A model generated the notes under the pieces. The model did not search any database. It had not been told where the DNA came from and saw only the letters and a list, made by a program, of their open reading frames with translations. The translations under genes and the position numbers were made by a program. Source: a virus (lineage: Duplodnaviria > Caudoviricetes). Taken from it: a stretch of 64,000 bases of DNA. How positions within the stretch are numbered: position 1 is the first letter of the stretch; every line of letters begins with the position of its first letter. This document shows positions 39,299 through 53,719 of the stretch, one piece after another. The DNA is taken from the IMG/VR virus record IMGVR_UViG_3300031760_000010, positions 1-64,000 of that record, one strand, 5' to 3'.

Positions 39299-39372
39299 AG
39301 TCTTATGTCAGATTCGAACTGACCCCGCCAGTTTGGAAGACTGGTATGCTATACCGCTAACACTAATAAGAC
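39299..39372 (-). tRNA. tRNA-Gly(TCC)
   Basis: Cloverleaf: acceptor GTCTTAT/ATAAGAC, anticodon arm CCAGT-CTTCCAA-ACTGG, T arm GTCAG-TTCGAAT-CTGAC, discriminator T. CCA not encoded. Confidence 0.88.
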
Positions 39373-41150: not shown

Positions 41151-41223
41151 AGCTCCCGCCCGGACTTGAACCGGGAGCCTGTTGATTACAAATCAACCGC
41201 TCTACCAATTGAGCCACAAGAGC
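41151..41223 (-). tRNA. tRNA-Thr(TGT)
   Basis: Acceptor GCTCTTG/CGGGAGC, D arm GCTCAATTGGTAGAGC, anticodon arm GTTGA-TTTGTAA-TCAAC, T arm CCCGG-TTCAAGT-CCGGG. Confidence 0.93.
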
Positions 41224-41772: not shown

Positions 41773-44700
41773 TTATCCAGCCGCCGATTTTTTACTTATA
41801 AAACATGCTAAAAAGCACTTTGAGTTAACTTCGTAGAGGGTCTTCAATAATAAAGCTTTGTTATAGTTAGTTGATGAAACCATCTTTGCGATGTTACTTT
41901 TTACCCCTGGAGTAATCACAAAAGCTCTATTAATTAATTTAGAAACTAAGCCAACATAATTTTTAGATAAATAAATTTGGCGGATATCTTCTATAAGCTT
42001 TTCAAAATCTTCCGCCAACATCATAAATAAATCTTCATCCGTTGGATCATCAGCCACTCCATGAGATAACAGTTTCAAAGAATATTTTTCAATCATCTTT
42101 TCAACTTTTCTTGACACCCTATGATGTTCCGTAAATTCATGTTTAATAAAAAAGTCCTGAATTGGAAGAGTGGAAGTAGTTGGATTATACGACTTTGGCT
42201 TTAATCTATATACATAATTCATTGGACATTTTAGTTGCTTATTCATTTTCTTCTTATCAAATTGCGGTCTTATCAATCCCCAAAAAGAAGGGTACCCACG
42301 TTGGTCAATTAGCATTGATTGCTTAATCAATTTTATTTCTTCCATTATATCAATGTCATATTTTCTTTTAGCATTGTCAATAGCACATTGAGCAAGAACA
42401 CTTAAAATACAAACATTATCATATAATTTCTGATCATCATAATTGTATGTATAAGACAATGCTATCTGTGCCAAGTTGCTGGATTCACCTATTGCCCGCT
42501 GGCTGGCCGCAAGGTTATTATCAATTCGCGCAAAATCTGCTAAAGTATTATTATAATGGTTAGCATCTTTGGGTATATTATTTACTATAGTAGGATATTC
42601 CCGATAAAATCTCCGGGCACTATCCACTACAGACGGTTGATTAGTAACGTATAGCGAATCTGAATCTTGATCTGCCTATTTGTTTCGTCCCAGGCTCTTT
42701 ATCCTGGGCGGCTCCGGGTTTCCCCGGAGTGTCGGACTATATCTTCACCTACGACTTTACGTTTAGGTGTTCGGCGCTCGTGGATGAATTATCGCTTTAC
42801 CCGCTCGTCATCTAGTCTCTAAGCTTTCCCATCTTTATTCGGTATTGGATGGGCTTAGTAATTGATTGGCTTATGTGTGTGATAATAATTAATTAGCCAT
42901 TTCGAAATAATAATTGTGATATAATTTCTGCTTTTTTGCCGCTCTTGATATGCAAGAAATCATACTTGATATTTTAATAGATAGTTTGCATTGCTCTTTA
43001 ATCCATGCGCAAGCATCCATTATCGTATCTGTGGTTAGTATATAATTTTTGTTTTGATCATATATATGAACTCGTTTGGCATTGGGATTTTCTTTTCCGG
43101 TTTGATGAGATAGGCGGTTTTTTGTTTTCGCTAACCACTGTTGATACTTTTCATCCGACATTCGTTCTTTTGGGGAAACCCCAAACATCGCGTTATTAGC
43201 ACCCGATGAAGTAATGCTGTATCGCTGTTTTAATTCGGCTACTTCTTCAGGCGTCTTTAACTCCCAATAATTGATTCCATAGGCAGGATTCTTTTCCCCT
43301 TTCATGGCCTCAGAATGTTGAATACACCATTCTTTGCTATGCACCATCCCCACACTACCATCTCCTCCAAAAGTATGGTTGGTTAAATGCCCTGGTTCAT
43401 TCTGACGATTATTATAACCAATAATATCAATCCCATAGCCTTTATTAAAAACATAATCCATAACAGTTTCATGTTCTAGTCGGTATGCTTCTTCTTCAGA
43501 TAAATTATCATAAAGAATATTTACACGCATTCCCACTTTATTAACAATTCTATCATGATGTTCGTTCCGTCTAGTATTGTAAGCTCGTTTCTTTCGTCCT
43601 TTTCCCACATAAAAACAAGTATCATTATCTAATCTAATATGCTCATATACACAATATCCTTGATCTTCTATATATTACACCTCCTTTTTAATTTAACTAT
43701 TATCACACACACTTAGCGTTCCAATTTTCACCGAATATTTTTTACGCATATTTCTATACGCTGGCCCAGTATGTTAAGCCGTTATTCCGATCCTGTGCAT
43801 CCGTTCCAATCATATTTAATGCTATAATCAATTTCCCAAATGTGAAATACCTCTTAAACCGTTCATCATAATGATTATGTAAATAATCCAGATTATTTCT
43901 ACTATTGAAAGGGTTCCTGAATCCAGCAAGATATTCACCATCTTCAAATCGTTCCGTATAACATTGAATTGCACCGTCTTCAATCATCAACGTATCATCT
44001 TTATGATAATCATCCCCGGCTGAAGCCAACAACATAGCATACGGAGATCCAACAATTACAAGATTGTCTGCTTGTTGAATAAGTTTACCTGTCTTTACAT
44101 TTTTTACATACGTACGAATTATTTCTTTTTTTCTTTCTCTAAAATAATCACAACGTATGAATTCCGGGTTATGCTCAACTAATGCGACAAGTACTTCATA
44201 ATCATTTGCAAAATTAGTATTTCTTCTCAAGTAATCTACAAATACAGCATCATTCCGCTTTAATTGCTGTATATAATCCAGAGTCTCTTGGCATATATTC
44301 TCCATTAGGTCTATATCTAATGCATTAACCATCTGATAGCTCATACGCTGTACCTCACCCAATTTACTAGGATGAGCTGTCTTCACTATACCAAACTGGC
44401 AGCCATTTTTTCGTACCCATTCAGACCAATATTCAAAATCAACATGAAACTTAAGCCACTTAAGTGCGTTTTCAGTGGTAATCAATTTTACATTCCTTGC
44501 TAATATTTTATGACCCCACATGTCTTCAACTTCAGCAGTTTCATATTGATCACCAAAATAATCTTGATAGAAGAGTTGTATATTGCTTCGAAAGGCTGCC
44601 ATCTTACAGAAATGATGTCGTAAGAGAATATAACCCTCCCCCCATTCCGGGAAAATGCTCTCATCAATTAATGCCTGTCCATCAAATAATGTATTCTTTA

Positions 44701-50009: not shown

Positions 50010-50155
50010 AAACACCTCCTTTACATTGCATCCACATGGTAAGGATTGCGAATTCAAAGCGATTTGTATGTATAATAATTTGTTAAATAATAAATTAAAA
50101 GATAATATGTTAAATTGTATATACAATACTTTATTATCTTATGCGGCGACTTAAT

Positions 50156-50221
50156 AAAGTTAATTTTTGACTCTAAAAACCCAATACTATATATTTTATT
50201 ATTGGGTTTTTGGAGACAAAA
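50156..50221. repeat. Imperfect inverted repeat; a third copy of the arm lies at 62451-62484
   Basis: TTTTGACTCTAAAAACCCAATA ... TATTGGGTTTTTGGAGACAAAA. Confidence 0.85.
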
Positions 50222-50819
50222 GTTTAAAAAAAGCCAAGTGAGAATTGGTAAAAATTGAGGTGGAGGGTATAGCAAAAATTTATGTCACAATTTTATTGTA
50301 GATGGAATAATGGCTGATGGGGGTTGATATAATCGTTGATAAAATAATAATGGGTGGTTGGGCTGATAAAAGATTGATGGGATTATAGCATGGATGAGGA
50401 GATGTGTCAAGGATGGTGGGGGATGGAGTGGGAGATGGAGAGATGGGAAGATAAGTGTTTATACTTAACTGTTTTATGATTTTAATATTTTTCGATTTAA
50501 TGGCCGATGAATAATTTTTAGAGCTGTATTAACAAGGTTACTATGAAAAAGAAAAATAAATTAAAGAAATATGAGATAAATATGAGATTGAAAAAATGAG
50601 TCAGTGTAAAAATGGACCCGCTATTGGGAAAATTGAAAAAATTTGTCGAATTTTGGTTCAAACACCCCCTGATTTCCTCAAAAAAACTGTAATTTTTCGC
50701 AAAAAAGTTTGGTTTTATGGTAGTATTGAATCGGAGGAACTATGTAAACCGCTTTTCGAAAACACTTTTCAAAAACACTTTATTAAAAGCGCCGATTGTA
50801 TCGGCAAAAGGAGGCTTAT

Positions 50820-51926
50820 ATGCGTACACCTAACACACTATCCGAACAACTCAATTCTTTTTTCGGTATTTCAGAAAATAATTATCCGATACCGCAAAAT
50901 TCAATCGAACGCTATCAAAAAACAGTTGAACTATCTAATCTGTTTAACGAATTGAACGAAAGTACCGCCGAAAATAATGACGATATTTTTTCGCCGTATA
51001 TTTCAGAAAAATCGTTATTAAAAGCGTTTTTTGACCGTCTAAGCGACGCCGAATATCGTGTAAAAATGGATGAATACGACGAAAGTCTAAAAACCGCCAA
51101 GTATCATTTTACACCATTCATACCTGCGTCAGAATTTACCGATATAGGCGAGTATATTGCCCAAAACAATTTGCATATCATTTTAACTAAAGTTGTCTTA
51201 AAAGGACTTTTGAGATATTCAACTAGACGAAAAGCCCATATTGCAAATACGGCGAAAAAAGCGCCGTCTTTCCGTAATGATTGGGCGATAGAACGAATAA
51301 TCACTAGTGGTTACAACGATCAAATTTTTGACGATATGACACAAAATGTAGCGTTGTGTATTTACGAAACTTTGATTCCAAATGGTATGATTAGTTTTGT
51401 ACCATTCGAGAATGATTTATGCTTATTTGATATTCATTTTGACATAGACCAAAAAGCGTATATCAAATTATGGAATGTTGTACAAAATACATTTACTCAA
51501 TGCCATGGTCACTCATATAGCGTGAAACATGCGTCAATTGAATCATTATCGGAAATAGGTGTACAATTTCAGACCGCCGAAAATGACATTGAAACGCGAC
51601 TTGCAAATATAAGATATATTGATAGTTTTCACGCAAATATGTGCATAATGAAAATATTCATGAAAGATAAAATGTATCATGAATTGACCGCTATCATTGA
51701 GGGAATATTAAAAGGATATAATCTTGAAACAATCAATAAAGCAACGAATATTCGTTGCGACTATGTTATCTCAAAAGCGCGTTTTTTCCATTGTTTCGCG
51801 CTTTTAGTACAAAAAGGACACACACAAAACTATATCTGTAAAACTATGAATATATCTGAAAAAACTTATAATAGGTATATAGCAAAATTGCCTGCCGACT
51901 TTGGGAAAATGGAATTTGCAATCTAA
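50820..51926 (+). CDS. Divergent sigma-70/ECF-like factor
   Basis: Region-2-like 'FDDMTQNVALCIYE', 'SIESL' linker and C-terminal region-4-like HTH 'GHTQNYICKTMNISEKTYNRY'. ATG 50820 after AAGGAGG. Confidence 0.5.
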   Translation: MRTPNTLSEQLNSFFGISENNYPIPQNSIERYQKTVELSNLFNELNESTAENNDDIFSPYISEKSLLKAFFDRLSDAEYRVKMDEYDESLKTAKYHFTPFIPASEFTDIGEYIAQNNLHIILTKVVLKGLLRYSTRRKAHIANTAKKAPSFRNDWAIERIITSGYNDQIFDDMTQNVALCIYETLIPNGMISFVPFENDLCLFDIHFDIDQKAYIKLWNVVQNTFTQCHGHSYSVKHASIESLSEIGVQFQTAENDIETRLANIRYIDSFHANMCIMKIFMKDKMYHELTAIIEGILKGYNLETINKATNIRCDYVISKARFFHCFALLVQKGHTQNYICKTMNISEKTYNRYIAKLPADFGKMEFAI

Positions 51927-51940
51927 TTAAACTATATCGA

Positions 51941-51971
51941 ATACCGCCGACTTCGGCGGTATTTTTTTTTT
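51941..51971 (+). terminator. Intrinsic terminator after the sigma-like gene
   Basis: ATACCGCCGA-CT-TCGGCGGTAT hairpin followed by T10. Confidence 0.88.
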
Positions 51972-52190
51972 GAAAAAAATTGGTTTTTTCTAGTCTTGAT
52001 TGATAGTTATAGTGTAAGGATTGATTGAGAATGACATAGAAATATGTCATTAGAAAAAACCAAAGATAATTCTATGTTTTTTCAAACATGGAATTATTTT
52101 TCAAATTTTTTTGAAAAAAATTGGTTTTTTCTAGTCTTGATTGATAGTTATAGTGTAAGGATTGATTGAGAATGACATAGAAATATGTCA
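51965..52190 (+). repeat. Perfect 85-bp direct repeat (51965-52049 and 52106-52190)
   Basis: Identical copies 141 nt apart, each ending in a TGACATA-GAAA-TATGTCA hairpin. Confidence 0.95.
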
Positions 52191-52617
52191 ATCATTCATT
52201 CACTTGCAAGTGCGGTTAGTTAGAGTCGCAACCGCTTTTCCGAATGACTTAAAATGGACTTTGTGAATGAACGGTTGACATTGGGAAGTGTCAAATCCTC
52301 ATCAATCTGCGCACACCGCATGGTTAGAGCGAGTCTCGGCGGACAGGGGCGAAGCTCAGACGAATCTAGCCAGACTTTGGATGACCGTCTTAAAATGTCA
52401 CCCCGCTTGTTACCGCAGACGTTAAGGCGGTAACCGCCAAACCCGGCAGGCTGTAGAAATGTTCCGGGTTGCTTTTCGGTGGATCGTTGACCCTGAGAGG
52501 AGTCTCTCAGGAACCGATGAACGTCTTCTTAGTCTTGCACCCTTGCAAATTCTAGGGCATAGTTCTAGGACTTGCAAGGATGCAAGACTGCATCCTAAAA
52601 ATAATATTTTTAGGAGG
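52158..52617 (+). ncRNA. Candidate large structured RNA / 5' leader (~460 nt)
   Basis: No credible ORF. At least ten stems and a 7-bp pseudoknot visible by eye (see findings). Confidence 0.6.
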
Positions 52618-52624
52618 TCATATT

Positions 52625-53584
52625 ATGACGTACAACAACATGAAGAAGGCTGAGCTTGTGAACCTGTGCAAAGAGCGGAATCTTCCCAGTAATGGCAAGG
52701 TTGCCACGCTGATTGAGCGCTTGGAGACTGCAGACCGTAAGGCTGCTGAAGCTGCCAACGCCGGGATTGGCGTTGGAGCGAACTCCAAGAAGTCCTATGC
52801 CGTGAACGCGATGCGTCCGGCAATCGTGGCGGCAAATGAGGCGAATAATCGCCGCGCCATCACTAAGGACGACGCCGCAGAAGCGGGCGTAGACGAGGAA
52901 CGCTGGCAGGAATGGAAAAAGTGGTGTGCAGATCTCCACGAGATCGTTTCCACCTACGTGGAGGCAAAACGCTCCAGATCTGCATCTTCTGCATCTACTG
53001 AGATGCGCCAGACGTACCGCCAGAAGATCTACCCGGCATGGAGAACCATGCTGAAGGTAGGGGAGGAAAACATTTTTTCGCCGAAGATGTACCTGCGAGA
53101 GGATGACGTAGAGTCCCTGATCGGATTCTGCGAAGACTTCGTGGGGACTGCAATGGGAACTGAGCAGGCCAACGCAACCGAAGGGAAGTTCCGCAAGTTG
53201 GTGGAGACCCTGATCGGTTGCCGCATTAAGGGATGTGAGACGCTTCCTGCAAAGGATCGCGATCTGATCATCCTGTACGAGAGCGCTCTGCGCTCCAAAG
53301 AGAAGGCTGAGAAGGCACTGAACGGAGACGGAAAGAATATCGTGGGTATCATCCGCGAACTGCAGGCTGCTGAAGTGCAGACTGAGAAATTCGTAACGTC
53401 TCTGCGGGAACTGGGACTGACCGAAGAGCGCATCGCCGAGGTGACGGCGCCGTTCTACGTGAAGGTAAAGGATCTGAAGGAAGCTAAGAAGCGTTCGGAA
53501 AAGGCTCTGAAGAAGGCCGAAGAGACGATCGCCGCGAAGAAAAATGCGGCGCAGGAGATCTACGATCGCATCAAGAGCCGCTAA
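52625..53584 (+). CDS. SAP/HeH-domain protein with C-terminal coiled coil
   Basis: 'YNNMKKAELVNLCKERNLPSNGKVATLIERLE' matches the SAP domain consensus. ATG 52625 after AGGAGG. Confidence 0.75.
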   Translation: MTYNNMKKAELVNLCKERNLPSNGKVATLIERLETADRKAAEAANAGIGVGANSKKSYAVNAMRPAIVAANEANNRRAITKDDAAEAGVDEERWQEWKKWCADLHEIVSTYVEAKRSRSASSASTEMRQTYRQKIYPAWRTMLKVGEENIFSPKMYLREDDVESLIGFCEDFVGTAMGTEQANATEGKFRKLVETLIGCRIKGCETLPAKDRDLIILYESALRSKEKAEKALNGDGKNIVGIIRELQAAEVQTEKFVTSLRELGLTEERIAEVTAPFYVKVKDLKEAKKRSEKALKKAEETIAAKKNAAQEIYDRIKSR

Positions 53585-53619: not shown

Positions 53620-53672
53620 GGACTCATGTGCAAGCCTCCCCGTGGCGAGTCTGGATTCGAACCGATTGCACA
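53620..53672 (+). ncRNA. Minimal HDV-like self-cleaving ribozyme #1
   Basis: P1 GGACUC/GAGUCU with G1-U wobble, P2 UGUGCAA/UUGCACA, P3 GCC/GGC, L3 UCCCCGU, P1.1 GG-CC, vestigial P4, J4/2 CCGA. Confidence 0.8.
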
Positions 53673-53719
53673 AGAAGGGAACCTTATGGTATAATGCTCT
53701 GAGGTAAAGGAGGGTTATT

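Follow-up and report, generated by a model that had tools for sequence, protein, structure and literature searches.

Tandem promoters are known from the P1-P2 pair of the E. coli rrn operons, with its UP elements, and from the early promoters A1-A2-A3 of phage T7. The locus described here belongs to a phage genome (Duplodnaviria; Caudoviricetes), IMG/VR record IMGVR_UViG_3300031760_000010. The window, i.e., the whole stretch of 64,000 nucleotides (nt) that was analysed, is the first 64 kb of this linear record of 122,559 bp, the completeness of which is estimated at about 80%. In a non-coding gap of 699 nt, between the first rightward gene, which bears a terminator at 51939-51964, and a gene for a SAP-domain protein, two identical 85-nt copies are found. 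We favour, with moderate confidence, the explanation that the locus is a tandem array of early promoters insulated by terminators. Like the rrn and T7 promoters, those of the array would be placed on the same strand, 80-145 bp apart, in front of a long structured RNA or an early operon, with A/T tracts upstream. Unlike them, the promoters here would have a terminator in between, and the upstream one would not just add to the output of the other; the identity of the copies extends over 85 bp, of which 30 nt would be transcribed, and the -35 element is replaced by a G-core/T-run element located 25-26 nt from the -10 region.

Two further phage systems are close to the locus. In the PR'-tR' unit of lambda, which gives 6S RNA, and in its StxS equivalent, a promoter is followed by a terminator within approximately 100-200 nt, and in Stx phages the short RNA has gained a regulatory role (PMC7547250). 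The likeness would consist of a phage promoter with a close intrinsic terminator and a short RNA as the default product. Unlike lambda, no Q-like antiterminator was found among the neighbouring proteins in Pfam and PHROG scans and no qut site was recognised; in addition, an identical putative promoter follows the terminator, so that downstream expression would need no read-through. In the immunity system of P4, seqB of the CI RNA is complementary to seqA and seqC (as summarised in PMC4825925). Here as well, a central segment is perfectly complementary (13/13) to direct repeats on both sides. Unlike those of P4, the direct 13-mers lie at about -40 to -28 of the putative promoters and would be transcribed only by read-through of the terminators T0 or T1 (listed below); no processing signals are known here, and there is no sign of a lysogeny module at the site. 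Promoters in tandem, terminated RNAs close to a promoter and antisense RNAs derived from leaders are already known as such. Particular to this locus are the embedding of an upstream promoter element in a terminator tail, the duplication of the first 30 nt of the large RNA, and a possible divergent sigma factor encoded by the adjoining gene.

Structure and reality of the repeat

The elements of the locus are listed below with their coordinates in the window and strand; lengths of proteins are given in amino acids (aa), and folding free energy is abbreviated as dG.

51965..52049 (+), repeat copy 1 (85 nt), putative promoter P1 and the first ~30 nt of its transcript
52106..52190 (+), repeat copy 2 (85 nt), putative promoter P2 and the 5' end of the large structured RNA
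51965..51979 and again 52106-52120 (+), T7-G-A7 tract, read from the sequence, with the look of a UP element
51980..51992 and again 52121-52133 (+), 13-mer X, consisting of a G-core and then T6, with the TTAT box 25-26 nt further downstream
52051..52063 (-), inverted 13-mer X', the exact reverse complement of both X copies
52008..52013 and again 52149-52154 (+), -10-like box TATAGT, 5/6 to TATAAT
52030..52051 (+), first hairpin (hairpin 1) predicted for the short RNA, with 9 pairs and a loop of GAAA; in copy 2 it is shorter and spans 52171-52190
52062..52112 (+), element T1, resembling a terminator, with an AT-rich hairpin of 18 pairs at 52062-52101 and then CAAA and T7
52161..52620 (+), putative large structured leader or non-coding RNA ahead of the SAP gene, from fold statistics and blocks shared with relatives
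51939..51964 (+), intrinsic terminator T0 of the 368-aa protein gene, an 11-pair stem with 6 G-C pairs, then a T-run; dG -17.6
50820..51926 (+), gene of the 368-aa protein, first of the rightward arm; fast-evolving family, C-terminal helix-turn-helix (HTH), possible sigma-2/sigma-4-like fold
52625..53584 (+), gene of the SAP-domain protein (319 aa), first downstream gene; Pfam SAP, E 2.2e-08

A sequence-only reading of the window, made by a model without database searches, had described two identical copies right behind the terminator of a sigma-like gene, a hairpin with a T-run between them, and an inverted 13-mer complementary to both direct copies. All of this was reproduced. The repeat search gave two direct copies with 100% identity and starts 141 nt apart, and a perfect repeat of 85 nt is too long to arise by chance in 122 kb. 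Copy 1 begins at the T-run of T0, which continues into it. The copies are separated by a spacer of 56 nt, and since the stretches following copy 1 and copy 2 are only 25% identical to each other, the structure is of the A-spacer-A type and no plain tandem repeat. In the predicted short RNA, hairpin 1 precedes and the terminator hairpin follows the inverted 13-mer, which matches both direct copies at 13 of 13 positions; when the 141-nt unit was simulated 2000 times with a first-order Markov model, 4 simulations gave a perfect inverted repeat of at least 13 nt, i.e., a chance of about 0.002. The T1 hairpin has a dG of -16.3 kcal/mol with T-runs at 52097-52101 and 52106-52112, and the 101-nt region including T1 has a folding z of -4.65. 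T1 was not listed by the terminator consensus scan because its stem has fewer than three G-C pairs. At the end of copy 2 the G+C content rises from approximately 0.32 to approximately 0.5.

The same reading had also pointed to two CTTAAAATG motifs downstream with a spacing equal to the repeat offset. The spacing as such is correct (52248 and 52389, i.e., 141 nt apart), but no 141-nt periodicity of the large RNA was found by comparing identities between offsets: identity at offset 141 was 0.263 versus a mean of 0.248 (standard deviation 0.024) over all offsets, a value so near the mean that the shared spacing is put down to chance. A small open reading frame (ORF) of 41 aa at 52044-52169 was rejected as a gene, as, unlike the genes of the phage, it has no Shine-Dalgarno sequence, and as it crosses the terminator into copy 2.

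The duplication is real DNA, as is seen in three assemblies and in k-mer depth. An ENA contig assembled by MEGAHIT at k141 (L005, 78 kb) is identical to the window over 9.1 kb, both copies included. In a bovine gut run (X1, Logan k31 contigs) the unitig of the 85-nt repeat has a depth of 46.7, compared to 18.6 and 21.4 for its flanks, and the unitig linking copy 1, spacer and copy 2 has a depth of 23.4. The repeat is thus present at about twice the flank depth, as expected from two copies per genome; X1 is possibly the source sample itself, so that its support is not independent. All runs containing the locus are bovine-gut metagenomes. An assembly artefact could be suspected from the k of 141 in the names of the ENA contigs, which equals the repeat offset. 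We attach next to no probability to this explanation. The 85-nt repeat is shorter than k, so each spanning 141-mer must come from the reads and the equality of offset and k is a coincidence; moreover, the JGI/IMG record has the identical two-copy form, and the k31 unitigs give the A-spacer-A topology with the repeat at twice the flank depth.

Putative promoter units in the window and in related phages

That the repeat holds a promoter had been proposed from the sequence, and a promoter with its first ~30 transcribed nt is indeed its most likely content, as the arrangement recurs at the syntenic site in at least five other lineages. By the criteria for sigmaA, a -10 box near TATAAT is present, whereas a -35 box at 16-18 nt or a TG-extended -10 is not: the TATAGT box has 5/6 matches to the sigmaA -10, the best -35 only 3/6, and TG is lacking. 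The promoter consensus scan did not list the TATAGT site. Judged from the position of the box, transcription would start about 7 nt past it, near 52019-52021 in copy 1 and 52160-52162 in copy 2. With a start near 52020, the T7-G-A7 tract would fall at about -55 to -41, the usual place of UP elements. Between T0 and the 460-nt structured leader there is no better promoter candidate than the repeat. A 15-mer match at 76041, inside a coding sequence, was dismissed as chance.

Relatives were found through homologues of the SAP protein with 35-62% identity. A blastn search of the phage GenBank collection gave no match, and neither did scans of IMG/VR with both flanking proteins, the SAP alignment and two exact DNA words. 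The relatives share the synteny of the window: a strand switch, a first gene of 368-498 aa, a terminator, 550-1080 nt of non-coding sequence and a SAP-like gene. Their large first gene is distantly homologous to the 368-aa gene, and in the gap a promoter-like unit precedes a structured region sharing blocks with the RNA of the window. The units, aligned by anchoring on the TTAT box, were distributed as follows.

Window: 2 units, 100% alike, spacing 141
L016, L017, L018 and L025: 3 units, 79-95% alike, spacings 85 and 137 (array at L016:2960-3260)
L033 (199-kb contig): 4 units, 67-78% to the reference copy, spacings 80, 89 and 143 (array at L033:4358-4723)
L034: 2 units, 81% alike, spacing 92 (array at L034:4350-4498)
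L014 and L015: at least 2 boxes, at contig ends, spacing 87 (array at L014:1-110)
L007, L009, L013 and L032: 1 unit each

In at least five lineages other than that of the window, a TATAGT-type box is found at the same syntenic site and at a fixed distance of 25-26 nt from a T-run/G-core element. The 13-mer of the window aligns with TTGTAC and the T-run of L016, L033 and L034, and with CGG and T8 of L009; with its constant distance of 25-26 nt to the box, it is taken as the window's own version of an upstream promoter element that is conserved in the group. In the relatives the unit takes the form of TTGTAC with a T-run, approximately 18 nt, and a CG(T/G)TAT box, situated past the first early gene and ahead of the long leader. 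Within the loci of the relatives examined, the word TTGTAC-N18-CGTTAT is confined to the arrays. The array of the L016 type, with its three units, shows no difference among four contigs of different samples, and since its copies have diverged from each other, such arrays seem to be kept for a long time. Terminator hairpins stand between the units of L016 (two hairpins), L014 and L033; the terminator between the two boxes of L014/L015 is canonical, and in the relatives the 3' arm and T-run of a terminator often make up the upstream part of the next unit. Contigs L014, L015 and L031 break within arrays, L031 at 20 nt into the first unit. What is conserved between units is the promoter part. The part that would be transcribed is alike only in the window (30 nt) and in L016 (~35 nt), and it is unlike between the units of L033 and of L034.

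The sequence-only reading had taken the promoter for a non-sigmaA one. The holoenzyme that would use these promoters may be that of the host sigmaA, aided by the A/T tract, or the core enzyme with the neighbouring sigma-like protein. In favour of sigmaA are the sigmaA-like -10 boxes, units P1 and P2 of L016 with 10/12 to consensus, and an extended -10 in L007. Against it, the unit of the window has neither a -35 nor a TG, while perfect sigmaA-type promoters exist in the same phage; the conserved upstream element is 21-22 nt and not 17 nt from the hexamer; and the last T of the hexamer is missing from two of the four units of L033, all of which nevertheless retain the invariant block upstream.

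The proposed array, the predicted short RNA and a possible recent duplication

We propose the following mechanism. Each copy would comprise an A/T tract, the 13-mer element, the TATAGT box and the first ~30 transcribed nt. P2 would start the large RNA, which leads into the transcript of the SAP-gene operon. P1, being identical from about -55 to +30, should fire equally, and most of its transcripts would end at T1 after ~80-93 nt. We infer such promoter activity, start sites and termination at T1 as features of a lineage-wide design of one to four units, each placed just behind a terminator-type hairpin and all before a long leader. The benefit is a guess: extra insulated promoters could raise the loading of polymerase on the last, productive promoter, as a terminated polymerase might slide and re-initiate nearby, while the terminators would keep the 5' end of the large RNA exact, at its closing helix. 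Sliding and re-initiation after intrinsic termination have been described in vitro (PMC6978380, PMC6978322, PMC10372574). Since the relatives conserve promoters and terminators but not the short RNAs, a role of the array at the level of DNA is favoured.

The region 52150-52630 has a folding z of -7.15. In the closing helix of the large RNA, the 5' strand (52159-52178) pairs with 52288-52308 and so closes the first domain of this RNA. The duplicated ~30 nt form this strand in copy 2, in agreement with the sequence-only reading, in which copy 2 runs into the large RNA; the leader of L007 pairs with the equivalent downstream segment through different bases. That reading had also derived a terminated RNA of ~95 nt from copy 1, for which ~80-93 nt are predicted here, the layout of a copy followed by a terminator being mirrored in L016, L014 and L033. 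The predicted copy-1 RNA has a free 5' end of 10 nt, a 9-pair hairpin, a free A-rich stretch containing X' and a terminator hairpin, and it has 30 nt in common with the large RNA. In Rfam searches of 51800-52750 with both gathering and E-value thresholds, neither the repeat nor the short or large RNA could be assigned to a family; the best matches, miRNA models on the hairpin at 52530-52590 with at most 26 bits, are noise.

The large RNA shares blocks with L007, L009 and L013, including a 25-mer at 52468-52492 that is identical to L007:3481-3505. Counterparts of the leader RNA were located at L007:3160-3600, L009:3245-3670, L013:3230-3630 and L032:1890-2270. An extra ORF of 77-104 aa with a strong ribosome-binding site lies between the RNA and the SAP gene in relatives, and is absent from the window. 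A second set of blocks is common to the longer leaders of L016, L033 and L034.

The short RNA could itself be functional and act in trans, either by imitating the large RNA in its 5' strand and first hairpin, so as to compete for the partner strand at 52298-52308 or for a protein, or by antisense pairing similar to that of the P4 CI RNA with seqA and seqC, the single-stranded A-rich 13-mer being the seed and transcripts that contain the 13-mer the targets. Such a role finds no comparative support, and we consider it unlikely. It would agree with the predicted shape, which is typical of small RNAs, with the 30 nt shared with the large RNA, with perfect complements of the 13-mer on both flanks at a frequency beyond chance, and with the first ~35 transcribed nt shared by units 2 and 3 of L016; StxS (PMC7547250) and the CI RNA of P4 (as summarised in PMC4825925) are precedents. 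On the other side, the units of L033 and L034 share the promoter part and not the transcribed part, i.e., the short RNAs are not conserved in sequence. The direct 13-mers lie upstream of the putative starts and would be reached only by read-through, and the only other matches in the genome are two 11-mers, both inside coding sequences. The decoy, feedback or guide-like role suggested earlier is not supported, as relatives keep the promoter part and not the short transcripts.

Several observations weigh against an array maintained for its function. That the copies are perfectly identical can be explained equally well by selection and by a very recent event. A 1957-nt ENA contig from a different sample (L006) is identical to the window except for an exact loss of 141 nt, which leaves one copy, and a single unit suffices in the four related lineages L007, L009, L013 and L032. 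The promoter is weak by sigmaA standards (-35 of 3/6, no TG), although the phage has consensus promoters elsewhere. Promoter words of 14-35 nt occur only in the two copies, and the bipartite motif is found nowhere else in the 122-kb record; the genome-wide motif search proposed with the sequence-only reading added no further copies. The stem of T1 has only two G-C pairs, and its U-run is partly within the stem before CAAA and U7 follow; the equivalent terminators in L016 and L014 are canonical. None of the runs containing the locus is an RNA run.

The single-copy form was followed in the low-coverage run X2, where the spacer unitig has a depth of 2.8x, the flanks 3.9-5.2x and the repeat 7.3x, and one contig ends at the same base as L006. 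The depths fit a mixture with about two thirds of two-copy genomes. The single-copy form is either a co-existing natural variant or the result of an assembler skipping the loop at low k or coverage; a polymorphism in copy number is likely but unproven. These data bear on the explanation that the repeat is a recent neutral duplication, generated by recombination or template switch and now being lost through the 85-bp repeats. It would account for the identity of the copies, for the single units in the closest relatives by SAP protein (L007, L009 and L013), and for the precise 141-bp loss in L006 together with the mixed forms fitted to X2. We regard it as a real alternative, though an improbable one, since the spacer is not junk, having an 18-pair hairpin with a U-run and a z of -4.65, and is only 25% identical to the stretch behind copy 2, which is not what a plain tandem duplication leaves, and since diverged multi-unit arrays recur independently in other lineages.

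If the insulated promoter array is real, a group of uncultivated phages of cattle and human gut starts its rightward early programme from promoter arrays, with each promoter set into a terminator tail, beside a possible phage sigma factor and before a large unclassified structured RNA. The locus would then offer a testable case for terminator-promoter spacing, polymerase recycling and insulation of RNA 5' ends, as well as a case for promoter specificity co-evolving with a fast-evolving sigma-like protein; the predicted starts and unit boundaries would be anchors for work on the large RNA. If it is not, the repeat is a recent and unstable duplication in a non-coding region.

The 368-aa neighbour and the surrounding region

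The label "sigma-like" for the 368-aa protein was only partly upheld: a weak, recurrent signal of a sigma-2/sigma-4 fold is there, but the sequence shows no sigma domain. At standard thresholds the protein was assigned to neither a Pfam nor a PHROG family, and it has no Pfam sigma domain; the sole Pfam signal is a sub-threshold HTH_36 (E 0.01). A word-indexed search gave no near relatives, syntenic homologues have 22-25% identity, and the profile search collected 37 proteins of the family. Sigma70_r4_2 was found in two distant members, P0027 (25.8 bits, cut-off 25.7) and P0029 (18.5 bits, below it), and weak matches to Sigma70_ECF and Sigma70_r4 in one member each. Against the Protein Data Bank (PDB), the family profile matched a sigma-H structure with E 0.011. 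Members P0016, P0017, P0020 and P0029 carry an N-terminal SAP domain, a DNA-binding domain that is also found in the gene downstream of the large RNA.

The first AlphaFold2 (AF2) model, built on a 5-sequence alignment, had a mean confidence (pLDDT) of 58.7 and gave uninformative structure searches. With a 36-sequence alignment the pLDDT was 72.3, with confident helical domains at residues ~100-230 and 265-365. Foldseek with this model returned nothing at E <=0.001, and the ESM Atlas had no usable match for the protein. In the exhaustive structural alignment, approximately 18 of the 50 best entries were sigma factors, all with Z <=5.9, for example 3mzy_A (Z 5.9, root-mean-square deviation 3.5, 72 aligned), 8i24_F (Z 5.1), 6dv9_F (Z 5.1) and 9m7y_F (Z 4.9). 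The matches are collinear, in many chains residues ~100-238 with sigma-2 and ~260-365 with sigma-4; LuxR-type HTH proteins score like sigma factors, and all Z values are below the level that is trustworthy for helical matches. A sigma-like nature of the protein is about as probable as its opposite, leaning slightly towards it, i.e., a reasonable lead and no finding.

Among the divergent sigma factors of phages, a close comparison is gp36 of phiEco32 (9m7y chain F; PMC12276001), with the sigma-2 and sigma-4 domains of which the 368-aa protein aligns weakly and collinearly. It differs in having no sigma domain by sequence and an extra N-terminal part of ~100 aa, and in that the promoter class next to its gene was not found elsewhere in the genome. 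The absence of the bipartite motif from the rest of the record speaks against a broad phage-sigma regulon in that part of the genome. For the array promoters, the 368-aa protein is the obvious candidate factor. It is conceivable, though we think quite doubtful, that the whole is a self-contained module of a kind not yet described, with a divergent sigma factor as the first early gene, a dedicated, terminator-embedded array that it recognises, and short RNAs acting on the large RNA as 5'-strand mimic or 13-mer antisense.

The C-terminal HTH of the neighbouring gene product would also suit an array of binding sites in the DNA, with the three 13-mers (two direct and one inverted, 70-71 bp apart) serving as operators or flanking a small invertible segment. 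We hold this to be very unlikely. The three 13-mer copies are perfect, and 50185(-), 50201(+) and 62455(+) are sites of a similar word, composed of ATTGG, then G or T, T5, any two bases and AG. However, the likeness of this word to the 13-mer (14/17) is post hoc, marginal and expected by chance at genome scale; 70-71 bp are not whole helical turns, an invertible segment of 57-58 bp would be unusually short, and no inverted form was present in any contig.

Genes of the phage are directed leftward until ~50.1 kb and rightward from 50.8 kb. The turning point (minimum) of the cumulative GC skew near 50 kb coincides with this change in orientation, and the locus is 1.8 kb from the strand switch and skew minimum. 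Together with the AT-rich region, the A/T tracts and the repeated sites, this position would allow a transcription-activated replication origin, at which tandem promoters make primer or R-loop RNAs beside AT-rich DNA. The primary origin of T7 with promoters 1.1A/1.1B is a precedent (PMC8373140), alike in having tandem promoters and AT-rich DNA near the likely start region of replication. Unlike the T7 origin, the promoters here feed a conserved structured leader and a gene. An origin seems to us distinctly improbable: the skew minimum is not origin-specific when it coincides with a change of gene orientation, no initiator gene or iteron array was recognised, and with units tied to the conserved leader and gene start, a promoter role is simpler.

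Perfect promoters of the type TTGACA-17-TGnTATAAT are found elsewhere in the phage, at 50387(-), 25636(-), 80766(+) and 81143(+). The first of these belongs to a divergent control region (50127-50795), the minus strand of which bears a perfect sigmaA promoter with its -10 near 50387. Within it, G-rich repeats of the GATGG/GGAG type at ~50330-50480 on the plus strand would give the leftward transcript a C-rich leader. At 50701-50728, the promoter region of the 368-aa gene combines an A6 tract with TTTGGTTTT and an extended -10 (TGG TAGTAT), and resembles the start of the repeat with a different spacing; the looser A-tract/TTGGTTTT/TAGT word at this place, upstream of the gene, was not counted in the same class on account of its other -10 spacing. 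A strong extended -10 promoter-like site (TGCACA, 17 nt, TGG TATAAT) is situated at 53662-53695 (+). A group I intron was matched in Rfam at the gathering threshold, with 50.8 bits, at 42712-42963 (-), between two minus-strand ORFs (41773-42627 and 42889-43608). Two tRNA genes were located, tRNA-Gly(TCC) at 39299-39372 and tRNA-Thr(TGT) at 41151-41223.

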